From assembly GCF_001945605.1 (NCBI RefSeq), contig NZ_MPKA01000059.1, positions 13,906 through 45,905 of the forward strand: a stretch of DNA of 32,000 nt, given 5' to 3'. Position 1 is the first letter of the stretch, and the number at the start of each line of letters is the position of its first letter. The notes under the pieces were generated by a model that saw nothing but the letters and a program-made list of their open reading frames with translations, was not told the DNA's origin and searched no databases. Positions 3,775 through 30,043 of this stretch are shown piece by piece. This DNA comes from Dubosiella newyorkensis. GTDB taxonomy: Bacteria; Bacillota_I; Bacilli_A; Erysipelotrichales; Erysipelotrichaceae. The position numbers and the translations under genes are program-made.

Positions 3775-4905
3775 ATGAATAAAGAAAATGCGATCGAAGT
3801 TCGGAATATGTATAAACACTTTACCGTTGAATATGATAAAGCCAATACGTTAAAAGAACGTTTGATCTTTTGGAAAAGAGGAAACAAAGATGTCAAAGAA
3901 GTTTTGAAGGATATTAGTCTTGATATTAAAAAGGGCGAAACTGTGGCTTTGATTGGTACGAATGGAAGTGGAAAATCGACTTTATTAAAGTTAATGACCA
4001 AGATCATTTATCCAAATAAAGGGACTTTAGAAACGGATGGGAAATTGACTTCGCTTTTAGAGCTTGGGGCGGGTTTTCATCCTGATTTTACGGGACGAGA
4101 GAATATTTACTTCAACGCTTCCATCTTTGGCTTGACGCATCAAGAAATCGATAAAAGAATCAATGATATTATCGAGTTTTCTGAATTGGGTGAGAATATC
4201 GACAATCCAATTAGAACGTATTCGTCGGGTATGTATATGCGTTTAGCTTTTTCGGTCGCGATCAATGTGGATGCGGAGATTCTTTTGATCGACGAGATTC
4301 TCGCAGTGGGGGATCAGCATTTTCAGGATAAATGTTTTGCCAAATTAGAAGAATTAAAAAATAGCGATAAAACGATCGTGATCGTTACGCATTCGCTCGA
4401 TGTTGTAAAGAAGCTTTGTGATCGAGCAATATGGATCTATAAAGGAGAATTTCGTTTAGATGGAGATCCAACGTATGTCATCGATGAATATTTAAAGCAA
4501 GTTGAACTCGATCATCAATACGATATAAAAACCGCGATTTTAGAAGGTCGCCATAAAATAAAAGGAGTTATCTATATTGATTCTCCTAAAAATTTCTCAA
4601 AATTGTTTAAGGTTGAGGGGAATTTGGCCTTTCATGGATGGTCGATCCATAATGGGTATGATATTCGTTTAAAGATTTTTTTAGATAATGAACCAGTCGA
4701 AAATTACTCGCATAATCCTCGACCGGATGTTTATAATGCGTATGCAGAAGATTATGCCGGTTTTTTAAATAAAGATACTATTGGATGGTCTTTTGAAATG
4801 CCATACTCTGAACTTTCTTTGGGGAAACATATAATAAAAGCACAATTGGTCGATAAAGAATCGAATATTATTGAAGAAAAAGAAAGTGAATTCACAATAG
4901 AATAG
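3775..4905 (+). CDS. Polysaccharide/teichoic-acid export ABC transporter ATP-binding protein (TagH/Wzt-like) with an extra C-terminal domain
   Basis: SD GAGGTGAG precedes the ATG. It has Walker A GTNGSGKST, signature YSSGMYMRLAFS and Walker B LLIDEILAVGD. About 120 extra C-terminal residues lie beyond the NBD (see findings). Confidence 0.92.
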   Translation: MNKENAIEVRNMYKHFTVEYDKANTLKERLIFWKRGNKDVKEVLKDISLDIKKGETVALIGTNGSGKSTLLKLMTKIIYPNKGTLETDGKLTSLLELGAGFHPDFTGRENIYFNASIFGLTHQEIDKRINDIIEFSELGENIDNPIRTYSSGMYMRLAFSVAINVDAEILLIDEILAVGDQHFQDKCFAKLEELKNSDKTIVIVTHSLDVVKKLCDRAIWIYKGEFRLDGDPTYVIDEYLKQVELDHQYDIKTAILEGRHKIKGVIYIDSPKNFSKLFKVEGNLAFHGWSIHNGYDIRLKIFLDNEPVENYSHNPRPDVYNAYAEDYAGFLNKDTIGWSFEMPYSELSLGKHIIKAQLVDKESNIIEEKESEFTIE

Positions 4906-5719: not shown

Positions 5720-8263
5720 ATGAGTAATATTTTTAAATCTTGTATTGATTCTATTGAATATAACGATAATCAATTTGAAAAAAATATCCGTTTAACTGGT
5801 TGGTGTTTTTTCGATGAAGGAAAGGTGGCAGAACTATCTATCCTTGTGAATAAAGAACCAATCGATTTTGAGATAACATCGATCCATAGACCAGATGTAT
5901 TAGGCTTATATCAATTTCATGATTCTTTTGAAAAAATAGGGTTTGTCATAACTGTACCATTGGAACATATTCAATTTTTAAAAAAGGTTGATGTTATTGC
6001 GTATTCTAAAAATACATCTGAAACGATTTATAGTTTATCTCATAATCTTCTTCATAAGTATCATAATCGTCAAGTTTTTCATTATTCAATAGATGATATT
6101 AAAAACAATCATGGGCAAATCGTTGTTTCTGGTTTCGTATATGTTCCTACTTTGGAACATGTAACAATAGAATTGTTGAATAAAGCTGGAAGAAGCGTTG
6201 AATACACATATGTTCCTGTACGACGGAGTGATGTCGTTGAACTTTATCAATTAGATTCGAACGATAAACTCATCGGCTTTCAGGTGATATTTACTTCTGT
6301 AGATCCAAAAGAAGCGTACTCTTTAAAATTTATTTATCAAAATGATGAATTAATTATTCCGATCATAGAGAGTAAAAGTGTCTTCTCTCTTGCAAAATCT
6401 TATATTAGGGCAGCCAATCCTAAACGTATTCAAAACGCATTCAATTATTTAACCAGAGAGGGATTTGATCGGTTTCTTGAGCGATTGAAAAAAGGGCCAT
6501 CTCAATTAAGTGATCCAAATGGACCATTATCTTATGATGAATACCATGAATGGTTCAATACAATGGCACCTACTTCTAAAGTACTTGAATCCCAAAAAAA
6601 ATATCATTTTGAGTTTGCGCCAAAAATCAGTCTGATTGTAGCTACTTATAATACGGATCCGAGCTTTTTGAAAGCTATGATTGATTCTGTCATTAACCAA
6701 ACGTATTCTAATTGGGAATTATGCATAGCGGATGGAAGTTCAAATAATCAAGTAGAAGAGTATTTTCGTTCTCATTATGATGATCAAAGAATCAAGTTTA
6801 AACGTTTACATTCCAATTTAGGAATTGCAGGAAATATGAATGCGGCTTTGGAACTATGCACTGGAGAATATATTGCATTTTTTGACCATGATGATTTATT
6901 GACACCGGATGCTCTTTTTGAAAATGTTAAAGTCCTTCAAAATAAAAATGTGAAATTTGTGTATTCAGATGAAGATAAATTAATTAGCGAAATCGGAATT
7001 TACAAAGATCCAAGGTTTAAACCAGATTTCAATCTAACGCTTCTTAGAACGCAGAATTATATTTGTCATTTTTTAGTTGTTTCTAAATCATTGATATCGA
7101 GAATTGGAGCATTTAAGTCAGAGTATGATGGGGCTCAAGATTATGATTTTGTTTTGAGAGCTAGCGAAGTTCTAAAACCGGAAGAGATCTATCATATCCC
7201 AAAAATTCTATATCATTGGAGAATGCATCAAGCTTCTACAGCGGCTAATCCTGAAAGTAAACTATATGCTTTTACGGCGGGAAAAAGGGCTCTTGAAGAT
7301 CATTTGATGCGCTTGAGATTACAAGCAACGGTTGAAATGGGTAAATCACTAGGAATCTATAATGTCCATTATGAGATTGTAGGAAATCCACTAGTTTCTA
7401 TTATTATTCCTAATAAAGATCATATTGATGATTTGGACCGTGCAATCGAATCGATTCAGGAAAAATCTTCTTATAGAAATTTTGAAATGATCATTGTGGA
7501 AAACAATAGTACGGATGAGTCCACTTTTGATTATTATAAAGAAATCGAAAATAAATACCCAAATGTAAAAGTTGTTTATTGGAAAGATGAGTTTAATTAT
7601 TCTGCGATCAATAATTTTGGATTTGAGTTTTCTAAAGGAGATTATATTCTTCTTTTAAATAACGATACAGAAATGATCGAGCCAAATAGTTTGAAAAGTA
7701 TGCTTGGTTATTGTCAGCTAGATGAAGTTGGAGCTGTTGGCGCTAAACTTTTATATCCTGATGATACGATTCAACATGCTGGAGTGATCATGGGATTAGG
7801 CGGAATCGCAAATCATGCTTTTGTTAATTTGAATCGCGAAAATGGGGGCTATTTCAATATGGCTTTTACTGCTAGCGAAGTTAGTGCTGTAACAGCGGCG
7901 TGCATGATGATAAAACGAAGTGTTTTTGAAGAAGTTGGAAAGCTGGATACAGACTTTAAAGTCGCATTTAATGATATTGATCTCTGCATGAAAATAAGAA
8001 AGAAGAATTATTCGATTATTTTTGATCCTCATGCTTTATTTTATCATTTTGAATCAAAGTCAAGAGGTTTAGAAGATACACCTGAAAAAATTGAACGTTT
8101 CAATGGAGAGATTGAACGATTTGAAACAAAATGGAAAGATATTTTAAAAAATGGAGATCCATATTATAATCCTAATTTTTCTTTACGATATCCGGGTGGT
8201 TATTATTTAAAATCGCCGGATGAGTTTTACGCGAATAGGAAAGAACAAGGTGGGGATCATTGA
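5720..8263 (+). CDS. Multidomain glycosyltransferase: two N-terminal small domains plus two GT2 (GT-A) catalytic domains
   Basis: SD AAGGAGAAG. GT2 domain 1 has ISLIVATYNTDPSFLKAMIDSVINQTYSNWELCIADGSS...FFDHDD. GT2 domain 2 has VSIIIPNKDHIDDLDRAIESI...MIIVENNSTDES...LLLNNDTE. This architecture is typical of polymerising enzymes in ABC-transporter-dependent glycan pathways. Confidence 0.88.
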   Translation: MSNIFKSCIDSIEYNDNQFEKNIRLTGWCFFDEGKVAELSILVNKEPIDFEITSIHRPDVLGLYQFHDSFEKIGFVITVPLEHIQFLKKVDVIAYSKNTSETIYSLSHNLLHKYHNRQVFHYSIDDIKNNHGQIVVSGFVYVPTLEHVTIELLNKAGRSVEYTYVPVRRSDVVELYQLDSNDKLIGFQVIFTSVDPKEAYSLKFIYQNDELIIPIIESKSVFSLAKSYIRAANPKRIQNAFNYLTREGFDRFLERLKKGPSQLSDPNGPLSYDEYHEWFNTMAPTSKVLESQKKYHFEFAPKISLIVATYNTDPSFLKAMIDSVINQTYSNWELCIADGSSNNQVEEYFRSHYDDQRIKFKRLHSNLGIAGNMNAALELCTGEYIAFFDHDDLLTPDALFENVKVLQNKNVKFVYSDEDKLISEIGIYKDPRFKPDFNLTLLRTQNYICHFLVVSKSLISRIGAFKSEYDGAQDYDFVLRASEVLKPEEIYHIPKILYHWRMHQASTAANPESKLYAFTAGKRALEDHLMRLRLQATVEMGKSLGIYNVHYEIVGNPLVSIIIPNKDHIDDLDRAIESIQEKSSYRNFEMIIVENNSTDESTFDYYKEIENKYPNVKVVYWKDEFNYSAINNFGFEFSKGDYILLLNNDTEMIEPNSLKSMLGYCQLDEVGAVGAKLLYPDDTIQHAGVIMGLGGIANHAFVNLNRENGGYFNMAFTASEVSAVTAACMMIKRSVFEEVGKLDTDFKVAFNDIDLCMKIRKKNYSIIFDPHALFYHFESKSRGLEDTPEKIERFNGEIERFETKWKDILKNGDPYYNPNFSLRYPGGYYLKSPDEFYANRKEQGGDH

Positions 8264-11585: not shown

Positions 11586-12428
11586 CTAAAATTTTGTTTC
11601 AATTTTACAAGTGTCTTCCATGATCGAATTTTCTTTAATAATGTGTCCAATCGAATCAGCTTTGATAAAACCACTTTTTGGATTCTTGACGGATTTGATG
11701 ATTCCTTTAATGGTCGCTTCGACTTGAGAGTATTCGAACGCAAGATCGGTATCGATCATTTCGTAGTCGATCAATTTCAAATTCTCGCAATAACAAAGTG
11801 GTTGTGTACCTATGATCTTACAGTTGATCAAGGTGAGGTTTTCAGAAAAATAAGCTAAATATTCACCTTTGATCGTCGAGTCTTTAACAATCACGTTTTT
11901 TGAATGCCAAAATGCGTCCTTTGTGTCTAGTATGGAATTTTCAATCAAGAGGTTTTCCATATATTGGAAGGAATACTTTCCTTTCATTTGAATGTTTTTT
12001 ACAAACACATCTTTCGAGTCTAGAAATAGATATTAACTTTCGATCGAAGAGTCGATGAGCTCTATATCTTTTGATTTCCATCCAAACTTTTTCGATCGGA
12101 TTTGGCTATTTTTGATTTGAATATTTTGACATTCACGAATCGCTTTGATATCAAATAGTTTTGTTTGATCGATTTTTCCAAACTTTGAATACCAAATTGC
12201 CGCTCTTGTTTTCTCATCGAAAGAAGAATCTTTTAAAACAAAAGTATCGACATGGCATAAAGGATAGCGAAGCGAAAAAGAAGAATCGAAGACTTCAATA
12301 TTCCTTGATTCCTTCAAGACCGATTCTCCATCTCGTATTCCAGCAAAAAGACAGTGATCAATTGTAACGTTTTTCGAATTATATAGTGCGCGTTCTTCAT
12401 CAAATTGTTTAATTTTTATAATTTCCAT
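11586..12428 (-). pseudogene. DUF3737-like beta-helix repeat protein gene interrupted by one in-frame TAA
   Basis: ATG 12428 sits 7 nt after AGAGGAG. The ORF-track pieces 12033..12626 (its 3' two-thirds) and 11586..12008 are in the same frame. They read ...SSIES-TAA(12033-12035)-YLFLDSKDVFVKNIQ.... The joined product of about 279 aa has repeated KN/ENxxIxxSxI motifs. The family name is from memory of DUF3737 proteins of about 280 aa. Confidence 0.7.
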
Positions 12429-12626
12429 GTTTTGTCTCCTCTTTGATTTCATAGCACAGTTGGTCAAGTATAGCCAACTTGTCTTGTTGTTTGTGAACTT
12501 CATCAAGCTGTTTTCGTCTAAGTTCGTTAAATATCGATTTGGTTGTCTATGATTTTGGTATTTTTCAATATCTTCATGCGAACATCCGCAATTTTTTAAA
12601 CAATCACAGACGTATCTTTGATCCAT
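12409..12626 (-). pseudogene. Small Cys-rich protein gene (CDC...CGC N-terminus) with a frameshift
   Basis: The N-terminal frame gives MDQRYVCDCLKNCGCSHEDIEKYQ. The plausible C-terminus (FNELRRKQLDEVHKQQDKLAILDQLCYEIKEE, stop at 12409-12411) is in another frame that opens only after a TAG near 12555. The 197-aa track ORF is therefore a chimera of this gene and the DUF3737-like gene. Confidence 0.5.
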
Positions 12627-22025: not shown

Positions 22026-23177
22026 ATGATGAAAACTGGAGATCTCGCTAAAATCGCAAATATAAGTTTACGAACTTTACGTTACTATGACAAAATAGGG
22101 CTTCTGAAACCTTCGCAGATCGCTCCAAATGGATATCGACAATACAATGAAGAAGATCTCATTCGATTGCAGAAGATCTTGTTATTAAAAAAGCTTGGCT
22201 TTTCTCTAGAAGAAATCGAAGGAATGCTGCTAGAAAAAGATCCTTCTTGGATCGATTCATTAAAAGAGCAAATTGGATTGGTCGATCAAAAGATTCAATA
22301 TTTTCAATTACTCAAAGAAACGATTCGAAAGACGATCGAGATCGTAGAGCGTAATGGAATGTCGGTTGAAAAAACAGTGCAGCTTCTTGAAATTATTTCT
22401 AAAGATGATCAGCTTGTAGAACAATATAAAAATTCAAAGAATCTTCATGTTCGTATTCGTCTTCATCATTTATATTCGACAAATCCTATTGATTGGTTTT
22501 CTTGGCTGAAAGAACAGATCGATTTTTCAAAAGGGTATCGGATTTTAGAATTAGGTGTTGGTAATGGCGATTTATGGATTGAACCAAAAGTTGATTTAAG
22601 AAATCGAGAAATTTTTCTTTCCGATATTTCGGAGGGAATGCTCGAAGACGCGAAAAAAAGACTTTCTGATGATTTTTCTTTTATGCAGATCGACGCGCAA
22701 AATATTCCATTTAAAAAAGACTTTTTTGATTTAGTGATCGCGAATCACGTTCTGTTTTACTTGAATGATCTTTCAAAGGGATTGAATGAAATCTATCGTG
22801 TATTGAAAAAAGGTGGAGTTTTTTATGCGAGCTCATATTCAAAAAGCCATATGAAAGAGATCACGGATCTCGCGAAAGAATTTGATTCAAGGATCCAACT
22901 GTCGCAAAACGTTTTACCTGATGTTTTTGGCAAAGAAAATGGAGAAAAATTGTTAGGTTCTTTCTTTTCTCAAGTTGAACGCAAGGACTACAACGATACA
23001 TTGGTGATCGACCAAGCAAAGCCGATCGTTGACTATATAATAAGTTGTCATGGAAATCAAAATGAGATCTTAAGTGGTCATATTCGCGAATTTTATCAAT
23101 TTGTAGAAGATAAGATCAAAGCGCAAGGGGCGATCACTGTCACCAAGGAAGCGTGTTTGTTCATTGCGAAAAAATAA
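22026..23177 (+). CDS. MerR-family transcriptional regulator fused to a class I SAM-dependent methyltransferase domain
   Basis: The N-terminus has a MerR HTH plus coiled coil (TGDLAKIANISLRTLRYYDKIGLLKPS...NGYRQYNEEDLIRLQKILLLKKLGFSLEEI). The C-terminus has MTase motif I ILELGVGNGDLW, then FLSDISEGML, FDLVIANHVLFY and LKKGGVFYAS. ATG at 22026 or 22029. Confidence 0.88.
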   Translation: MMKTGDLAKIANISLRTLRYYDKIGLLKPSQIAPNGYRQYNEEDLIRLQKILLLKKLGFSLEEIEGMLLEKDPSWIDSLKEQIGLVDQKIQYFQLLKETIRKTIEIVERNGMSVEKTVQLLEIISKDDQLVEQYKNSKNLHVRIRLHHLYSTNPIDWFSWLKEQIDFSKGYRILELGVGNGDLWIEPKVDLRNREIFLSDISEGMLEDAKKRLSDDFSFMQIDAQNIPFKKDFFDLVIANHVLFYLNDLSKGLNEIYRVLKKGGVFYASSYSKSHMKEITDLAKEFDSRIQLSQNVLPDVFGKENGEKLLGSFFSQVERKDYNDTLVIDQAKPIVDYIISCHGNQNEILSGHIREFYQFVEDKIKAQGAITVTKEACLFIAKK

Positions 23178-23209
23178 TTTTGTGAAATTATCAAATTGAA
23201 TCTTATATA

Positions 23210-23240
23210 TTGACCCTTACGTAACGTAAGGGTTTAATAT
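23210..23240 (+). promoter_or_regulatory. MerR-type promoter/operator candidate (also able to fold as a terminator hairpin)
   Basis: TTGACC (23210-23215), a 19-nt spacer, then TAATAT (23235-23240). A perfect dyad ACCCTTACGT-A-ACGTAAGGGT (23213-23233) sits in the spacer. It lies 29 nt before rfbA ATG 23269 (SD AAAGGAGA). The same dyad plus TTTAATATTTTT could terminate the upstream gene. Confidence 0.5.
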
Positions 23241-23268
23241 TTTTATAACGATAAAAAAGGAGACTACT

Positions 23269-24150
23269 ATGAAAGGTATAATTTTAGCGGGAGGTTCAGG
23301 CACTCGGCTGTATCCTTTAACAAAAGTAACGAGTAAGCAACTTCTTCCAATTTATGACAAACCAATGATCTATTATCCAATGTCTATTTTGATGCAGGCT
23401 GGAATTCGCGATATTTTGATCATCTCTACTCCAGAAGATCTTCCTCGTTTTGAAGAATTGTTGGGAGATGGTCATCAATTTGGAGTGAATCTTTCTTATA
23501 AAGTTCAGCCTTCTCCTGATGGATTAGCGCAAGCCTTTATTCTTGGAGAAGAGTTTATTGGAGACGATTCTGTCGCAATGATTCTTGGAGATAATATTTT
23601 TAATGGTCATGGATTGACGAAACGTCTTAGAGCTGCTGCACAAAAAGAAAATGGAGCAACCGTATTTGGCTATTACGTAGAAGATCCAGAACGATTTGGT
23701 GTGGTTGAATTTGATGAAAACGGAAAGGCGATCTCTTTAGAAGAAAAGCCTACAGAACCAAAGTCGAACTATGCTGTAACTGGACTCTATTTTTATGATA
23801 ACAATGTAGTGGATTATGCAAAAAATCTAAAACCGAGTCCTCGTGGAGAACTTGAAATTACGGATCTAAATAAAATTTATCTTGAAAAAGGAAATTTGAA
23901 TGTCACATTGCTTGGAGACGGTTTTACATGGTTGGATACGGGAACGCATGAATCTTTGGTAGACGCGACCAACTTCGTAAAAACGATGGAAGACCATCAA
24001 CATCGCAAGATCGCATGTTTAGAAGAAATCGCCTACGATAATGGCTGGATCGATCTAGATCAATTGAAAGAAACGTACGAAATCTATAAAAAGAACCAAT
24101 ATGGAACTTATTTGAAAAAGATCATGGACCGCAAATATATTAAAGACTAA
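23269..24150 (+). CDS. rfbA: Glucose-1-phosphate thymidylyltransferase (RmlA)
   Basis: [34 protein letters not shown], ...GDNIF.G and ...LEITD.N..YL. It is full length (293 aa). Confidence 0.97.
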
Positions 24151-24160
24151 AGGAGAGTAT

Positions 24161-24736
24161 ATGAAAGTAACAGAAACAAAAATTCCTGGCGTTTTGATCA
24201 TCGACACTGATGTGTTTGGAGATCATCGAGGTTATTTTACAGAAACGTATTCAAAACCAAAATATGAGAAGTTAGGAATCAATGTTGACTTTGTTCAAGA
24301 CAATATGTCCTTCAGCGCGCAAGAAGGAACTTTGAGAGGATTGCACTGGCAAAATCCTCCGTATGCTCAGTCAAAACTGGTATCTTGTACAAAAGGAAAA
24401 GTGATCGATGTAGCTGTTGATATTCGTAAAGGAAGTCCTACATTTGGACAGTGGGTTAGCGTAGAGCTTTCCGAAGACAATCATCGACAGTTCTTTATTC
24501 CACAAGGTTTCGCGCATGGATTCTTGACATTGACTCCAGATGTGGAGTTTCGCTATAAAGTAGATAATGTCTATAATAAGGAATCAGAAGGTGGTATGCG
24601 TTATGATGATCCGACAGTCAATGTGGATTGGGGAAGCCTCCTTCAAGGAATCGAACCTGTATTAAGTGAAAAGGACCAAATCGGACCTACTTTGGAGGAG
24701 TCGGATAATCAGTTTGTGTATGGAGAGAATTGTTAA
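24161..24736 (+). CDS. rfbC: dTDP-4-dehydrorhamnose 3,5-epimerase (RmlC)
   Basis: IPGVLII..DVFGDHRGYFTETY, RGLHWQ, QSKLVSCTKGKVIDVAVDIRKGSPTFGQW and PQGFAHGF. Confidence 0.96.
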   Translation: MKVTETKIPGVLIIDTDVFGDHRGYFTETYSKPKYEKLGINVDFVQDNMSFSAQEGTLRGLHWQNPPYAQSKLVSCTKGKVIDVAVDIRKGSPTFGQWVSVELSEDNHRQFFIPQGFAHGFLTLTPDVEFRYKVDNVYNKESEGGMRYDDPTVNVDWGSLLQGIEPVLSEKDQIGPTLEESDNQFVYGENC

Positions 24737-26832
24737 TGGATCTTCTTTATAAAAATCAAAAATATCTCAACGTTCTCCTTGGTGATATTGGGATTCTCTT
24801 CATAACTCTATTTGTTCATCGTTTTTTAGAGAATTCACAATTGATTCTTTATATTGGGCCAGTTTTGATTTTAGTTAATACACTTCAATTATGGTTTTCG
24901 AAAGAATTAAAAAAAAGTTTGGACTTTATTATTCGATATCGATATCCGATAGCTTTGTTCGTATTTTTAGTTCTCGTTTTTTTTAGAGTCAATGGCTCTT
25001 CTATTGGAGTTTTTGATACGATATATGGCAAAGAAGAAAATATAATCACTGAACTATTTGGAAAGGCTAGACCAATACGAAGTGACGAATTTGTGGTTCA
25101 GGTTCCTTATTTCTTTTCCCAATATTTCAATTCATTTGGATTGAATTCTCATATGATGTCGCTTTCAGGTCAAAATATGATCATAGGCTACAATAGCCCT
25201 GTACTGGACTTAACTTTGATTGGTAAGCCAGATATATGGGGATATATGTTATTTGGAAATGAAATAGGACTCTCGTGGTATTGGAATTTTCGGATCATTG
25301 CTTTTCTTCTCATTGGCTATGAGATGTTCGTCATTTTAACGAAGAATAAATACTTATCTCTTTTTGCTTCAATTTGTTTAGTTTTTAGTCCAGCGCTTCA
25401 ATGGTGGTTCGCGCCCCATATGTATCAAGTGTTTTTTTGGGCTTCTACACTTTTTGTAGTTGGTTACTACTTTTTCATTGCGCATCAAAAATGGAAAAAG
25501 GTTTTATTTACAATTTTATCCATAAGCGCTCTTGTAGGTTTTGTTGTTTCAATATTCCCTTCTTTGCAAGTTCCGCTTGGATTGCTCATGCTGATTTTAA
25601 TGGTTTGCTGTTTGATTCGAGATCGTCAAGAATTGAAATGGGAAAAAACCGATTTCTTGAGACTGCTTTTTGTTATAGTGATCGTTGGAATCGTTTTGGG
25701 AGTATTTTTAGTTGAATCGAAAGATGCTATTAAACTATTAAATGATACAGTTTACCCAGGAAAACGAATCAGCACGGGTGGCGATTATCCTTTCGCTAAT
25801 CTGTTTACAGATCCCGCTATGATGTTGACTCCATTTCAAGCCCCGAAAGCATTAAATGAATGTGAGATTAGCTGTTTCAATCATTTTGGAGTATTATTTA
25901 TACTTTATTATCCTTACCTTTACTATGTGGTGAAGAAAAAAGGAGGAAGTACAATTGTTGGAAATGCGTTATTTATTATCTTGCTCATAGAGATTTTCTT
26001 TATGATTATTGGCTTTCCAACCTGGTTGGCAAAAATCACATTGTTTTCTTATATGAATCGAATGGTACTCGTTTATGGATTTACGGCTTTTCTCTTTACA
26101 TTTTGGTCAATTCAAAAAGTATGGGAATATAGAAAGAATCTAAGAAAGTCGATCGCATTTGCTACAGGCTGTATTTATATTATTATATATTTGCTTGCTT
26201 ATCGAAATTATGGGTCATCGTTCTATTCAGGACATATCAGCAGTTTGATATATTTTGTTATTCCTTTTATCTTAGGAGGTTTTTCTATTTTATTATTCAC
26301 AAAATGGAGAAAATTGTTTTTCCCTGTCTTTGGGAGCTGGGTAATCTTGACAGGGATGTTTGTGAATCCAATTGTAATCGGAGCGGAATCGATTACAAAT
26401 CACACTCTTGTTTCGGAGGCTGTTAAAATCAATCTTGAGAATCCCAAAGAAAATTGGCTGTGCTTAAACTCTCTACATACTCAAAATCTTTTGATGGCGA
26501 ATGGAATTCCAGTTTTAAATGCAGTGAATTTTTATCCAGATGAGATGAAATGGAATTTGATTGATCCGGAACATGAGCAAGAGGATTTTTACAACCGCTA
26601 TTTGCATATGTTAATTGAGCTAACTTCAGATCCAACATCTTTTTCTTTAATAAGTAAAGATGCTTGTCAAATTCATTTAAATATAGAGGATTTAAAGAAA
26701 TGGGATATTCATTACTTAACAACAAATATAGGATCTGAAACAAAAACGGTATTACAGAATTATGGAATTCAGTATTCTGTTCTGTATACAGATCAAGCAT
26801 CCAATGAAGAAATTATAAAACTTGACTATTGA
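24736..26832 (+). CDS. Large polytopic membrane protein, probable GT-C-type extracytoplasmic glycosyltransferase
   Basis: ATG 24736 shares a base with the rfbC TAA (TAATG), with GGAGAG 8 nt upstream. It has about 14 TM segments, an acidic first external loop (ARPIRSDEFVVQVPYF) and a ~130-aa C-terminal soluble domain. It lies adjacent to GtrB/GtrA-like genes. Confidence 0.7.
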   Translation: MDLLYKNQKYLNVLLGDIGILFITLFVHRFLENSQLILYIGPVLILVNTLQLWFSKELKKSLDFIIRYRYPIALFVFLVLVFFRVNGSSIGVFDTIYGKEENIITELFGKARPIRSDEFVVQVPYFFSQYFNSFGLNSHMMSLSGQNMIIGYNSPVLDLTLIGKPDIWGYMLFGNEIGLSWYWNFRIIAFLLIGYEMFVILTKNKYLSLFASICLVFSPALQWWFAPHMYQVFFWASTLFVVGYYFFIAHQKWKKVLFTILSISALVGFVVSIFPSLQVPLGLLMLILMVCCLIRDRQELKWEKTDFLRLLFVIVIVGIVLGVFLVESKDAIKLLNDTVYPGKRISTGGDYPFANLFTDPAMMLTPFQAPKALNECEISCFNHFGVLFILYYPYLYYVVKKKGGSTIVGNALFIILLIEIFFMIIGFPTWLAKITLFSYMNRMVLVYGFTAFLFTFWSIQKVWEYRKNLRKSIAFATGCIYIIIYLLAYRNYGSSFYSGHISSLIYFVIPFILGGFSILLFTKWRKLFFPVFGSWVILTGMFVNPIVIGAESITNHTLVSEAVKINLENPKENWLCLNSLHTQNLLMANGIPVLNAVNFYPDEMKWNLIDPEHEQEDFYNRYLHMLIELTSDPTSFSLISKDACQIHLNIEDLKKWDIHYLTTNIGSETKTVLQNYGIQYSVLYTDQASNEEIIKLDY

Positions 26833-26845
26833 ACAGGAGGAATAT

Positions 26846-27766
26846 ATGAATCAAGATAAGAAGATCGCGGTGCTGCTTCCTTGTTATAACGAAGCGCTAA
26901 CTGTAGAAAAAGTAATCAAAGATTATAAAGAAGCCTTTCCAACCGCCGATATTTATGTTTATGACAACAATTCTACCGATGGAACAGGAGAAATTGCTAA
27001 AAAAGCAGGAGCGATCGTGAAAAGAGAATACGCACAAGGAAAAGGAAATGTGATTCGCGCGATGTTCAAAGATATCGATGCCGATTGTTATATTATGGCA
27101 GATGGAGATGATACGAATCCTCCAGTTCCTGAAATGGCCGACATGATTTTGCGAGGAGAAGCAGAAATGGTCATTGGTGATCGTCTTTCGAGCACATATT
27201 TTACAGAAAACAAAAGGCCTTTCCACAATACAGGAAATCGAATGGTTCGTGGTTTGATCAATACACTGTTCGATGTAAATGTTACAGATATTATGACTGG
27301 CAGCCGTGCTTTTAGTTATACATTTGTTAAAACTTTTCCAGTACTTTCCAAAGGATTTGAGATCGAAACGGAAATGACGATCCATGCCGCAGCACACAAT
27401 TTGAGAATGGTCGAAGTGCCTACCAATTATCGAGATCGTCCTGAGGGAAGCGAATCAAAGCTCAATACATATTCAGATGGAGCGAAAGTGCTTGGAACAA
27501 TCGCAAGATTATTTAAAGAATATAAGCCAATGGCATTTTTTGGACTGTTTGCCTTGATCTTTTTGATCATTTCGATTTGTTTGTTCGTACCTGTCTTTAA
27601 TGAGTATTTTGCGACGGGATTAGTTCCTAGATTTCCGACATTGATCGTAGCAGGTTTTTTGTTGATCATCGGTTTGCTGTTGTTTATGTGCGGATTGATT
27701 CTGGAAGTCATTGTAAAGAAGAACAGACAGATTTTTGAATTGTTTTATATAAGGACAAAACGATGA
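26846..27766 (+). CDS. GtrB/CsbB-like GT2 polyprenyl-phosphate glycosyltransferase
   Basis: ATG 26846 after AGGAGG (26835-26840). It has IAVLLPCYNEALTVEKVI, YVYDNNSTDGT, MADGDDT and two C-terminal TM helices, the typical GtrB topology. Confidence 0.88.
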   Translation: MNQDKKIAVLLPCYNEALTVEKVIKDYKEAFPTADIYVYDNNSTDGTGEIAKKAGAIVKREYAQGKGNVIRAMFKDIDADCYIMADGDDTNPPVPEMADMILRGEAEMVIGDRLSSTYFTENKRPFHNTGNRMVRGLINTLFDVNVTDIMTGSRAFSYTFVKTFPVLSKGFEIETEMTIHAAAHNLRMVEVPTNYRDRPEGSESKLNTYSDGAKVLGTIARLFKEYKPMAFFGLFALIFLIISICLFVPVFNEYFATGLVPRFPTLIVAGFLLIIGLLLFMCGLILEVIVKKNRQIFELFYIRTKR

Positions 27767-28146
27767 AGAAACTGATTGAACAAATTTTAAAGTTCGGATT
27801 TGTTGGGATACTCGCTTTCTTTATTGATTACGGATTAATGATCTTTTGTACAGAAGTATTAGGTATTTATTACTTATGGTCATCTTTGATTTCCTTCACT
27901 GTATCCGTGGTCTTCAATTACATAATGAGTGTAAAGTGGGTATTTAATGTCGATAATGGAAAAACACAAACACAAAATTTAGTTTTCTTTATTACGTTTA
28001 GCGTCATTGGACTTGGACTCAATCAACTGCTTATGTGGTTGGGTGTAGATAAAATTGGAATTAATTATATGATCGTGAAACTGTTTGCGACCGGAGTGGT
28101 CATGGTATTCAACTATATCACCCGCAAATGGTATTTTGAAAAATAG
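27763..28146 (+). CDS. GtrA family membrane protein (putative polyprenyl-P-sugar flippase)
   Basis: ATGA overlap at 27763-27766. The protein is 127 aa with 4 TM segments, an N-terminus FGFVGILAFFIDYGLMIF and a C-terminus NYITRKWYF, all typical of GtrA-like proteins. Confidence 0.88.
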   Translation: MKKLIEQILKFGFVGILAFFIDYGLMIFCTEVLGIYYLWSSLISFTVSVVFNYIMSVKWVFNVDNGKTQTQNLVFFITFSVIGLGLNQLLMWLGVDKIGINYMIVKLFATGVVMVFNYITRKWYFEK

Positions 28147-28157
28147 GAGGAATAACG

Positions 28158-29192
28158 ATGAAAATTTTAGTTACAGGTGGAGCTGGATTTATTGGTGGTA
28201 ACTTTGTTCATTATATGGTCAATAAATATCCAGAAGATATGATCATCAATGTGGATAACTTAACGTATGCAGGAAATTTGGAAACTTGTAAGCCTGTAGA
28301 AGATAAGCCAAACTATAAGTTTTATAAAGGCGATATCGCGGATCATGATTTTATATTTGATCTTTTTGAAAAAGAACGTCCAGATATTGTAGTAAACTTT
28401 GCGGCTGAATCGCATGTCGATCGTTCGATTGAAGATCCAGAAATCTTTGTTCGTACGAATGTGATGGGAACAACTACTCTACTAGATGCTAGCGTAAAGT
28501 ATGGAGTAAAACGTTTTCACCAAGTTTCCACTGATGAAGTATACGGGGATCTTCCGCTTGATCGTCCTGATTTATTTTTTACAGAAGAAACACCACTTCA
28601 TACAAGTTCACCATACTCTTCCGCAAAAGCGGCTGCGGATCTTTTCGTATTAGCTTACAACAGAACGTATGGACTTCCTGTGACGATTTCTCGCTGCTCG
28701 AACAACTATGGTCCATATCACTTCCCAGAAAAGCTGATTCCTTTGATCATTTCGCGTGCGCTGAACGATGAGAAGATTCCGGTTTATGGGGATGGAGCGA
28801 ATGTACGAGATTGGCTGCATGTTTATGATCATTGCGTGGCGATCGATATGATCATCCGAAATGGTCGGGTTGGAGAAGTGTATAACGTTGGCGGTCACAA
28901 CGAAAGAACGAATTTACAAGTCGTTAAAACGGTCTTGAAGGCACTTGGAAAATCAGAAGATTTGATTACGTTTGTAGAAGATCGCAAAGGACACGATATG
29001 CGATATGCGATTGATCCAACAAAATTGGAAACAGAACTTGGATGGAAGCCAAAATATACATTTGATACAGGAATTCCTCAAACGATCCAATGGTATCTCG
29101 ATAATAAAGAATGGTGGGAAAACATCATTTCTGGTGAATACCAAAACTATTTCCAAAAAATGTATGTGGATAAAGGAAGAGTTGAAGAATAA
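28158..29192 (+). CDS. rfbB: dTDP-glucose 4,6-dehydratase (RmlB)
   Basis: MKILVTGGAGFIGGNF, FAAESHVDRSI, STDEVYGD, YSSAKAAADL and RCSNNYGPYHFPEKLIP. Confidence 0.97.
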   Translation: MKILVTGGAGFIGGNFVHYMVNKYPEDMIINVDNLTYAGNLETCKPVEDKPNYKFYKGDIADHDFIFDLFEKERPDIVVNFAAESHVDRSIEDPEIFVRTNVMGTTTLLDASVKYGVKRFHQVSTDEVYGDLPLDRPDLFFTEETPLHTSSPYSSAKAAADLFVLAYNRTYGLPVTISRCSNNYGPYHFPEKLIPLIISRALNDEKIPVYGDGANVRDWLHVYDHCVAIDMIIRNGRVGEVYNVGGHNERTNLQVVKTVLKALGKSEDLITFVEDRKGHDMRYAIDPTKLETELGWKPKYTFDTGIPQTIQWYLDNKEWWENIISGEYQNYFQKMYVDKGRVEE

Positions 29193-30043
29193 TGAAAATT
29201 TTAGTTACAGGTGTTAAAGGACAACTTGGTTATGATGTTGTGAACGAAGCTACCAAACGGGGAATTGAAGCGGTTGGTGTCGATATTGACGAAATGGATA
29301 TTACGAATCAAGAGCAAGTTGAAAAAGTCATTAAAGAAGGTAATTATGATGCGGTCGTTCATTGTGCGGCTTGGACTGCAGTAGATAAGGCCGAAGAACC
29401 TGAACTTCTTGATAAAGTTCGCGCAGTCAATGCGACAGGGACCAAATATATCAATGATGTTTGTAAAGAATTGAATATTCCTATCATGTATTTTTCGACG
29501 GATTATGTTTTCAATGGTGAAGGAGAAACGCCTTGGAATGAATATGATGAATTTGAACCGTTGAACGTATATGGAATTACGAAAGGCGAAGGAGAAAAAT
29601 TCGTTCTTGAAAACCCGAAACATTTTATTATTCGAATTGCTTGGGTTTTTGGAAAGAATGGAAACAACTTTATCAAAACGATGCTTCGTCTAGGAAAAGA
29701 AAGAGGAGCTGTTTCGGTCGTAAACGATCAAATCGGACTTCCAACATATACCTATGATTTAGCGAGACTTGTCGTGGATATGATTCAAACCGAAGAGTAT
29801 GGAACGTATCATGCGACAAACTCAGGAGACTTTATTTCATGGTATGACTTTGCGAAAGAAATTTTCAAACAAGCCAATATGGATGTAGAAGTAACTCCAG
29901 TAGATTCTTCTCAATTTCCAGCGAAAGCAAAACGTCCCCATAATTCGCGAATGAATCAAACTGAATTGGATAAACATGGATTTGAACGTCTTCCCGATTG
30001 GAAAGATGCTTTGGCGAGATACTTAGTTATTTTGGCTGATTAA
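29192..30043 (+). CDS. rfbD: dTDP-4-dehydrorhamnose reductase (RmlD)
   Basis: TAATG overlap with rfbB. It has MKILVTGVKGQLGYD, HCAAWTAVDKAE, STDYVFNG, YGITKGEGE and RIAWVFG. Confidence 0.95.
   Translation: MKILVTGVKGQLGYDVVNEATKRGIEAVGVDIDEMDITNQEQVEKVIKEGNYDAVVHCAAWTAVDKAEEPELLDKVRAVNATGTKYINDVCKELNIPIMYFSTDYVFNGEGETPWNEYDEFEPLNVYGITKGEGEKFVLENPKHFIIRIAWVFGKNGNNFIKTMLRLGKERGAVSVVNDQIGLPTYTYDLARLVVDMIQTEEYGTYHATNSGDFISWYDFAKEIFKQANMDVEVTPVDSSQFPAKAKRPHNSRMNQTELDKHGFERLPDWKDALARYLVILAD

Follow-up and report, generated by a model that had tools for sequence, protein, structure and literature searches.

A putative long-spacer MerR-type promoter before a dTDP-rhamnose operon and its association with a MerR–methyltransferase fusion protein

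Many Gram-positive bacteria carry rhamnose-rich wall polysaccharides as major structures of their surface, and to our knowledge very little has been established on the transcriptional control of rhamnose precursor supply. The 32-kb stretch of DNA analysed here (from this point on, the window) raises that question in a compact form: a gene for a MerR–methyltransferase fusion protein is followed, after a short intergenic segment, by genes of the dTDP-rhamnose (rml) pathway. In MerR-family systems, a dimer of the regulator binds a dyad in the promoter spacer, and the long spacer makes for a poor promoter until the activated regulator untwists the DNA. Is the intergenic segment a promoter of this kind, a terminator of what lies upstream or both, and which protein acts on it?

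The element and the operon behind it

The preliminary description of this site had placed between the two genes a TTGACC hexamer, a 19-nt spacer, a TAATAT hexamer and a perfect 10+10 dyad, all of which are confirmed from the sequence (Table 1). The layout is that of a MerR-type promoter, with hexamers 19 bp apart, a dyad overlapping the spacer and a protein with a MerR helix-turn-helix (HTH) encoded upstream. The open reading frame of this presumed regulator lies where it had been described, and its end is 32 nt from TTGACC rather than the 33 nt first given. The dyad takes in the final three bases of the -35 hexamer and stops 1 nt short of the -10 hexamer; the TTG of the -35 is outside the dyad and is kept in relatives with unalignable upstream flanks. 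A start at the predicted position would give rfbA a 5' untranslated region of about 22 nt that contains the ribosome-binding site (RBS) AAAGGAG.

A second copy of the dyad, as would be expected of autoregulation or a larger regulon, was not found in the window when up to 3 mismatches were allowed, and 0 of 100 shuffled sequences yielded a match. A scan for TTGNNN, 19 nt and TANNNT in which at least 8 of 10 centred pairs had to be complementary returned one site in the window, against a shuffle mean of 0.035 (n = 200). The shuffles, this pattern scan and the cross-genome count of the core given below together led us to reject a chance origin of the site. A search of positions 22800-23500 for known RNA families gave no Rfam match at E-values up to 1. 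About 20 nt 5' of the -35, at window positions 23181-23190, lies the motif TGT[GA]AAATT, which recurs at aligned positions in loci L004 and L007 and is kept in relatives of the Dubosiella clade amid varying bases; it could be a UP-like element or a mark of shared ancestry alone.

Table 1. Features of the window and promoters of distant MerR–methyltransferase (MerR-MT) clades
Feature	Position	Strand	Basis or remark
MerR–methyltransferase fusion, 383 aa, presumed regulator	22026..23177	+	Pfam, PDB matches, AF2 model
-35 hexamer TTGACC	23210..23215	+	read from sequence
Spacer between hexamers, 19 nt, CTTACGTAACGTAAGGGTT	23216..23234	+	read from sequence
-10 hexamer TAATAT	23235..23240	+	read from sequence
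Putative operator, perfect 10+1+10 dyad ACCCTTACGT-A-ACGTAAGGGT	23213..23233	.	TipA/Mta class
Dyad as RNA hairpin with U-rich tail	23213..23245	+	top match of terminator-like scan
Predicted transcription start	23247	+	sigma-70 promoter geometry, ~7 nt past -10
RBS AAAGGAG of rfbA	23256-23262	+	ATG at 23269
rfbA	23269-24150	+	Pfam
rfbC	24161-24736	+	Pfam
DUF7657/DUF7654 membrane protein, 700 aa	24730-26832	+	Pfam
GT2	26822-27766	+	Pfam
GtrA-like	27763-28146	+	Pfam
rfbB	28158-29192	+	Pfam
rfbD	29192-30043	+	Pfam
Distant-clade promoter TTGAAG-GTGACGTAACGTCATCTTT-TATACT	before rfbA		
Distant-clade promoter TTGACA-GTGACGTAACGTCATCCTT-TATACT	before rfbA		
Distant-clade promoter TTGAAG-GTGACCTAGCGTCACCTTT-TATAAT	before rfbB		
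Distant-clade promoter TTGACA-GTGACCTAAGGTCACCCTT-TATAGT	before rfbA		
Distant-clade promoter TTGACA-CTTCCCTTACGTCACCCTT-TATGAT	~45 nt before MerR-MT start		Anaerostipes-named cluster

The seven genes from rfbA to rfbD (23269..30043) overlap or are separated by gaps of at most 11 nt, tight enough packing for a single operon, and the same gene order is found in the closest relatives. Pfam bore out the rfbA, rfbC, GT2, GtrA, rfbB and rfbD assignments made earlier; the 700-aa protein, named GT-C there, matched DUF7657/DUF7654. The remaining window is a wall-polysaccharide cluster of the ABC-transporter type, with LCP proteins, a Wzm/Wzt-like transporter, GT2 and GT4 enzymes, a CapD-like enzyme and an initiating sugar transferase. 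C-terminal extensions of O-antigen Wzt proteins bind the capped glycan terminus. The Wzt/TagH-like ABC ATPase of the window (3775-4905, 376 aa) matches Aquifex Wzt and TagH structures over residues 12-265, its nucleotide-binding part, and its last ~110 residues have no match in Pfam or by PDB sequence; a connection of this extension with the methyltransferase was considered and dropped. On the minus strand, two adjacent open reading frames correspond to the N-terminal and C-terminal halves of the DUF3737 profile (12033-12626 to profile positions 2-127, and 11586-12008 to positions 140-274); this gene (11586-12626) appears to be split and is a probable pseudogene.

The MerR–methyltransferase protein

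The 383-aa protein, which we will refer to as MerR-MT together with its relatives, has a MerR winged HTH and coiled coil at its N-terminus (residues ~1-110) and, beyond helical linkers, a class I SAM-methyltransferase domain (~164-290) with a C-terminal cap. Pfam reports MerR_1 (1.7e-17), MerR-DNA-bind and Methyltransf_11 (1.2e-19), as well as Methyltransf_25 and Methyltransf_31, and no specific NCBIfam family is assigned to the protein. Its nearest relative is a Dubosiella newyorkensis protein of 95% identity. By sequence, the closest solved structures for residues 4-104 are those of MtaN (1JBG/1R8D, E-value 2.6e-15), followed by the Bacillus cereus MerR protein 3HH0, TipAN (2VZ4), Lmo0526 (3QAO) and SkgA (7CLA), all of which outrank BmrR, CueR and MerR in the PDB sequence search. 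An S-x-R-T-L-x-x-Y-D helix and a G-Y-R-x-Y wing are common to the HTH of the regulator, MtaN, TipAN, Lmo0526 and SkgA. Pfam finds no TipAS domain in the 383-aa protein, which is thus not a member of the TipA class despite its TipA/Mta-like HTH.

An AlphaFold (AF2) model, with an alignment of 28 homologues as input, has a pLDDT of 83 and shows, besides the HTH and a Rossmann-type domain that bears a C-terminal cap, a long helix at residues 75-110 and two linker helices. Foldseek places the C-terminal domain near small-molecule SAM methyltransferases, namely OxaG, GtmA, TmtA, JHAMT and BioC (E-values of ~1e-13 to 1e-11), with RoqN and AtmM/RebM as further neighbours. These structural neighbours methylate small molecules that are too diverse for the fold to indicate a substrate, and that line of reasoning was dropped. 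The ExGxGxG motif (E175, G177, G179, G181) and D200 are invariant across the 28 homologues, as are many further positions, among them the stretches RNR, FGxENG and SCHGNQ. The domain thereby combines a Rossmann-like fold, ExGxGxG and an acidic residue after beta-2, the marks of a class I SAM methyltransferase; judged by these alignments, it is under strong constraint and can probably still bind SAM. The HTH of MerR-MT is likewise retained and conserved.

Only 7 nt separate the regulator gene from the gene upstream, with which it is probably co-transcribed. Its position at the end of an upstream glycosyltransferase operon implies that it is not autoregulated in this genome; the gene lies 5' of the promoter. 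A TipAS-like short isoform starting at the internal Met111 was also considered, and was dropped for want of a convincing RBS.

The operator and its probable regulator across genomes

Published binding probes are available for tipA (TTGCACCTCACGTCACGTGAGGAGGC), mta (TTGACCCTAACGTTGCGTGATTGTTT) and skgA (TTGACCCTCACGCCACGTCAGACCTG) (PMC7762955). The corresponding window sequence, TTGACCCTTACGTAACGTAAGGGTTT, agrees in 20 of 26 positions with the mta promoter probe and has a TTGAC-CCT-ACG..ACGT core in common with it, and an ACG-NN-ACGT core is common to the window site, tipA and skgA. At the level of sequence, this comparison confirms that the operator belongs to the TipA/Mta class. A resemblance to this class had been suggested for both dyad and HTH, and the probe match and the ranking of MtaN and TipAN among the structures closest to the HTH agree with it.

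A 24-nt core of the element (pattern TTGACCCTWACGNNACGTWAGGGT) was then searched on both strands of one genome per species, 596 Gb in all, and returned 42 sites in 42 genomes, against an estimated chance level of ~0.3. Twenty-seven of these, from Erysipelotrichales and relatives, are linked to rfbA, and all lie 55-75 nt before its start; the genera include Dubosiella, Faecalitalea, Holdemanella, Floccifex, Faecalicoccus, Absicoccus, Erysipelothrix, Thomasclavelia and Solobacterium. Thirteen sites, from Coriobacteriia, Acidobacteriota, Christensenellaceae and Clostridiales, are found just 5' of MerR-HTH genes, and TipAS (PF07739) was confirmed in all five of the products tested; this is the classical autoregulated TipA arrangement. 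The remaining two, from Gemmatimonadota, were placed in neither group. Positions 1, 2 and 6 of the -10 hexamer had been left out of the search pattern, and T1, A2 and T6, the bases of greatest weight in a -10 hexamer, are invariant in 41 of 41 distinct sites, including GC-rich ones without a T-tract, as is the 19-nt spacing; the -10 bases between T1/A2 and T6 are free to vary in GC-rich genomes. Fixed spacing together with invariant T1, A2 and T6 is the signature of a promoter with a 19-bp spacer and not of a hairpin with a U-tail, which supports the long-spacer MerR-type promoter that had been proposed.

The same picture is seen in individual contigs. The order of regulator, then rfbA, is kept in contigs whose regulators are 95%, 75%, 71% and 56% identical to that of the window; their flanks have diverged, and TTGACC, the dyad and TAnnnT at a distance of 19 nt are retained, with the central base alone changing. 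In L013, a Holdemanella-type locus, two GT4 genes stand between regulator and rfbA, and the element lies directly before rfbA. Symmetric double changes occur within the operator, CTAACGT/ACGTTAG in L013 and ACCATTACGT/ACGTAATGGT. As a separate observation, an extended -10 (TGATATAAT) is found 10-15 nt past the MerR-type -10 in L013 (9400-9425), L018, L024, L047 and L056, all Holdemanella/Solobacterium-type loci, and could act as an additional rfbA promoter, possibly a constitutive one; this element is absent from the window.

MerR-MT is encoded in the flank of 16 of the 27 rfbA sites. In 8 of these 16, 1-15 nt separate the end of its gene from TTGACC, or the two overlap; the rest have the gene 0.1-3.4 kb away, several of them with glycosyltransferase genes in between. 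At 7 of the 27 sites, unrelated genes lie directly 5', with no MerR-MT within the 1.3-5.6 kb of upstream flank, and the last 4 had too little flank to be judged. Metagenome contigs extend the distance between regulator and operator to as much as 6.5 kb, and L093 has rml genes that are convergent with the regulator gene, the operator lying at the far side together with rfbA. The position of the element is therefore tied to rfbA and not to the 3' end of an upstream gene.

Read as RNA, the dyad folds into a hairpin with a 9-bp stem and a loop of 3 nt (-11.8 kcal/mol); the tail behind it, UUAAUAUUU, has 6 U among its 9 bases and A as the third. A hairpin with a T-rich tract had been pointed out before and does form in RNA, its stem being 9 bp and not the 8 bp then counted. 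Stem energies at the rfbA-linked sites range from -10.6 to -11.8 kcal/mol. The tail has 4-7 U in 9 at rfbA-linked sites and 2-5 in 9 at TipA-linked sites, and its third base is always the interrupting A of the -10 hexamer. Since the regulator gene is followed by too little space for a terminator of its own (32 nt from stop codon to -35 in the window, 1-15 nt in eight relatives), a side role as a leaky terminator or insulator is possible. Such a dual element, a MerR-type promoter that is also a partial RNA terminator, would insulate rfbA so that the regulated promoter sets rml expression. Hairpin and U-rich tail are both there to serve it, and we entertain the idea tentatively; however, the U-tract is weak and perhaps just reflects an AT-rich -10 and discriminator, the comparative data do not demand termination, and the extra extended -10 downstream in some relatives suggests basal expression by other means.

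Whether the MerR-type promoter answers to MerR-MT can be approached from the side of the regulator. A metagenome scan with the 28-sequence alignment returned 80 MerR-MT relatives of 44-55% identity. In the closer clade, 33 of 42 have a TipA-type operator and rfbA within 6.5 kb. The more distant clades (44-49% identity) still adjoin rml genes, and their promoters have different dyads and always the form TTGAnn-19 nt-TAnnnT (Table 1). In the Anaerostipes-type clade, MerR-MT is followed after 17 nt by rmlD-rmlC-rmlA-rmlB and the promoter precedes the regulator gene, a layout that is, by its predicted elements, an autoregulated MerR-MT-rmlDCAB operon. In the Fusicatenibacter/Mediterraneibacter clade, an rfbB-like gene lies just upstream of MerR-MT and there is no rfbA in the flank. 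As far as gene neighbourhoods tell, the link between MerR-MT and rml genes spans Erysipelotrichales and Lachnospiraceae and outlasts changes of gene order, operator sequence and bacterial class. Moreover, the operator changes with the regulator clade, which is the pattern expected for a cognate pair of regulator and operator. The co-localisation (16/27 and 33/42) and the clade-wise promoters thus speak for the adjacent fusion protein as the likely rml regulator, as had been surmised. A search for a residue-to-base rule gave no clean correlation between HTH variants and operator variants; a change of the wing from GYR to GAR or GIR tracks a TGACGT-type operator in some loci and is broken by L112, which combines GYR with TGACGT.

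Three further observations concern the neighbourhoods of MerR-MT genes. In L099, L101-L103 and L106-L109, on the minus strand at ~4849 (~2595 in L103), a promoter TTGACT-ATAGGGTTACCCTATCCTT-TATAAT with a 19-nt spacer and the dyad ATAGGGT-T-ACCCTAT lies ~2 kb from the MerR-MT gene of these Fusicatenibacter-type loci and points away from it. In L118, from Coprobacillus cateniformis, TTGACC-ACTCCATTAAGGAGTGGTT-TAATTT (6940-6970; 19-nt spacer, different dyad) is found directly 5' of MerR-MT, and a TipA-type site lies before rfbA, 5 kb away; here the regulator may itself be controlled by another MerR protein. In L010 (6159-11158), where the regulator is 58% identical, the rml genes are replaced by AbiEi/AbiEii, ToxN and a Schlafen/AlbA_2-type gene, so that the usual place of rfbA looks like a defence island, and no operator was found within the 140 bases read after the regulator gene.

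The operator might be real and yet belong to another TipA/Mta-class regulator encoded elsewhere, MerR-MT being linked to the pathway in another way, for instance by methylating a rhamnose-containing product. MerR+TipAS regulators in other phyla do use the identical operator, seven rfbA sites have no MerR-MT in the flank, and the methyltransferase domain, by its motifs and its model, appears catalytically intact. An autoregulated TipA gene predicts, however, a second strict operator match, and none exists in any scanned genome; furthermore, MerR-MT clades with divergent HTHs adjoin divergent rml promoters with 19-nt spacers, in Anaerostipes within a single operon, and MerR-MT keeps a conserved HTH. 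We therefore consider another regulator improbable, noting that the true binder, or a competing one, could be a TipA-class paralogue encoded at another place in the genome.

Least credible by far is that the dyad is an intrinsic terminator only, of the regulator gene or the upstream operon, next to hexamers present by coincidence: the element is the top match of the terminator-like scan, its stem is stable, and in eight genomes the dyad starts 1-15 nt past the regulator stop codon, but it stays before rfbA despite unrelated genes, glycosyltransferase insertions of 0.3-6.5 kb and the convergent layout of L093, its stem is kept in sequence beyond what pairing requires while the outside TTG and the -10 T, A and T are invariant, and it stands in identical sequence before TipA-class genes in GC-rich genomes, with a poor and invariably interrupted U-tail. 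Of the terminator alternative offered in the preliminary description, the added, partial role is what survives.

A proposed MerR-type switch for a glycan-decoration operon

Taken together, these results make it quite likely that the site is a sigma-A MerR-type promoter of the rml/glycan-decoration operon, most likely run by the adjacent MerR–methyltransferase. In the mechanism that we propose, a dimer with a TipA/Mta-like winged HTH would bind the dyad, the most likely candidate being the MerR–SAM-methyltransferase fusion encoded just upstream. Inactive, it would leave the promoter poor or repressed; active, it would untwist and bend the 19-bp spacer, allowing RNA polymerase to use both hexamers. 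By analogy, the methyltransferase domain would replace the drug-binding domain TipAS as the signal-receiving module, with SAM/SAH, a small-molecule methyl acceptor or a pathway metabolite as candidate signals. Folded as RNA, the dyad might in addition hold down read-through into rfbA from the transcript of the upstream glycosyltransferase and regulator genes.

The class of mechanism is already known. What appears to be new is a promoter of the TipA/Mta class serving a nucleotide-sugar operon, and a MerR branch with a SAM-methyltransferase C-terminal module tied to rml genes. Full-text searches of open-access papers and preprints found no description of a MerR-controlled rml operon, in agreement with the earlier statement that none was known, or of a MerR–methyltransferase fusion; the first matches were false, being hits to the names Merriman and Merritt. 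The locus points to an undescribed gating of cell-wall sugar supply in gut Firmicutes. It also offers a testable unit, delimited to the base, of regulator, operator and target operon, which recurs in common gut commensals of mice and humans. A promoter class of multidrug sensors would seem to have been rewired to a biosynthetic operon, and a SAM methyltransferase would join the small set of known MerR-family effector modules. More speculatively, MerR-MT may be a conserved, undescribed class of enzyme-regulator for the dTDP-rhamnose pathway of abundant gut Firmicutes, in Erysipelotrichales (such as Dubosiella, Holdemanella, Faecalitalea and Erysipelothrix) and Lachnospiraceae (such as Anaerostipes), in which an active methyltransferase has replaced TipAS and its occupancy or turnover couples methyl-donor status, a metabolite or a toxin to wall rhamnose supply. 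Candidate ligands would be SAM/SAH, a methyl acceptor and possibly a rhamnose-pathway intermediate. If the methyltransferase is the sensor, the locus might provide a new ligand-responsive switch for anaerobic gut Firmicutes.

PutA and BirA are examples of trigger enzymes, or fusions of enzyme and regulator. MerR-MT resembles them in joining a DNA-binding domain to a seemingly intact enzyme domain near a metabolic operon, whereas it is hypothetical here that the methyltransferase works in the rhamnose pathway or that catalysis is coupled to regulation. With the distortion promoters of MerR, CueR and BmrR, the window site has in common a spacer of 19-20 bp, a dyad in that spacer and a dimeric MerR-family regulator; it differs in effector module and physiological output, and its distortion is a prediction. 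TipAL at ptipA in Streptomyces and SkgA in Caulobacter have the same operator architecture, and the exact 24-nt core precedes 13 MerR+TipAS genes; unlike these regulators, the window protein lacks TipAS, and nothing around Met111 indicates a short effector-only isoform. The TipA mechanism is a release of autoinhibition via the alpha6-alpha7 region of TipAS (PMC7762955), and this switch, which needs the TipAS helices, is not transferable to a methyltransferase domain. There is a likeness, too, to Mta of Bacillus subtilis (MtaN-DNA structure 1R8D) at the mta promoter, where the -35 is also TTGACC, the dyad also starts inside the -35 and the core also contains ACGT. Mta, however, uses TipAS as its effector domain, regulates its own gene and acts on multidrug-efflux genes, whereas in the window a SAM methyltransferase stands in the effector position, the putative target is a nucleotide-sugar and glycan operon, and the promoter lies 3' of the regulator gene.
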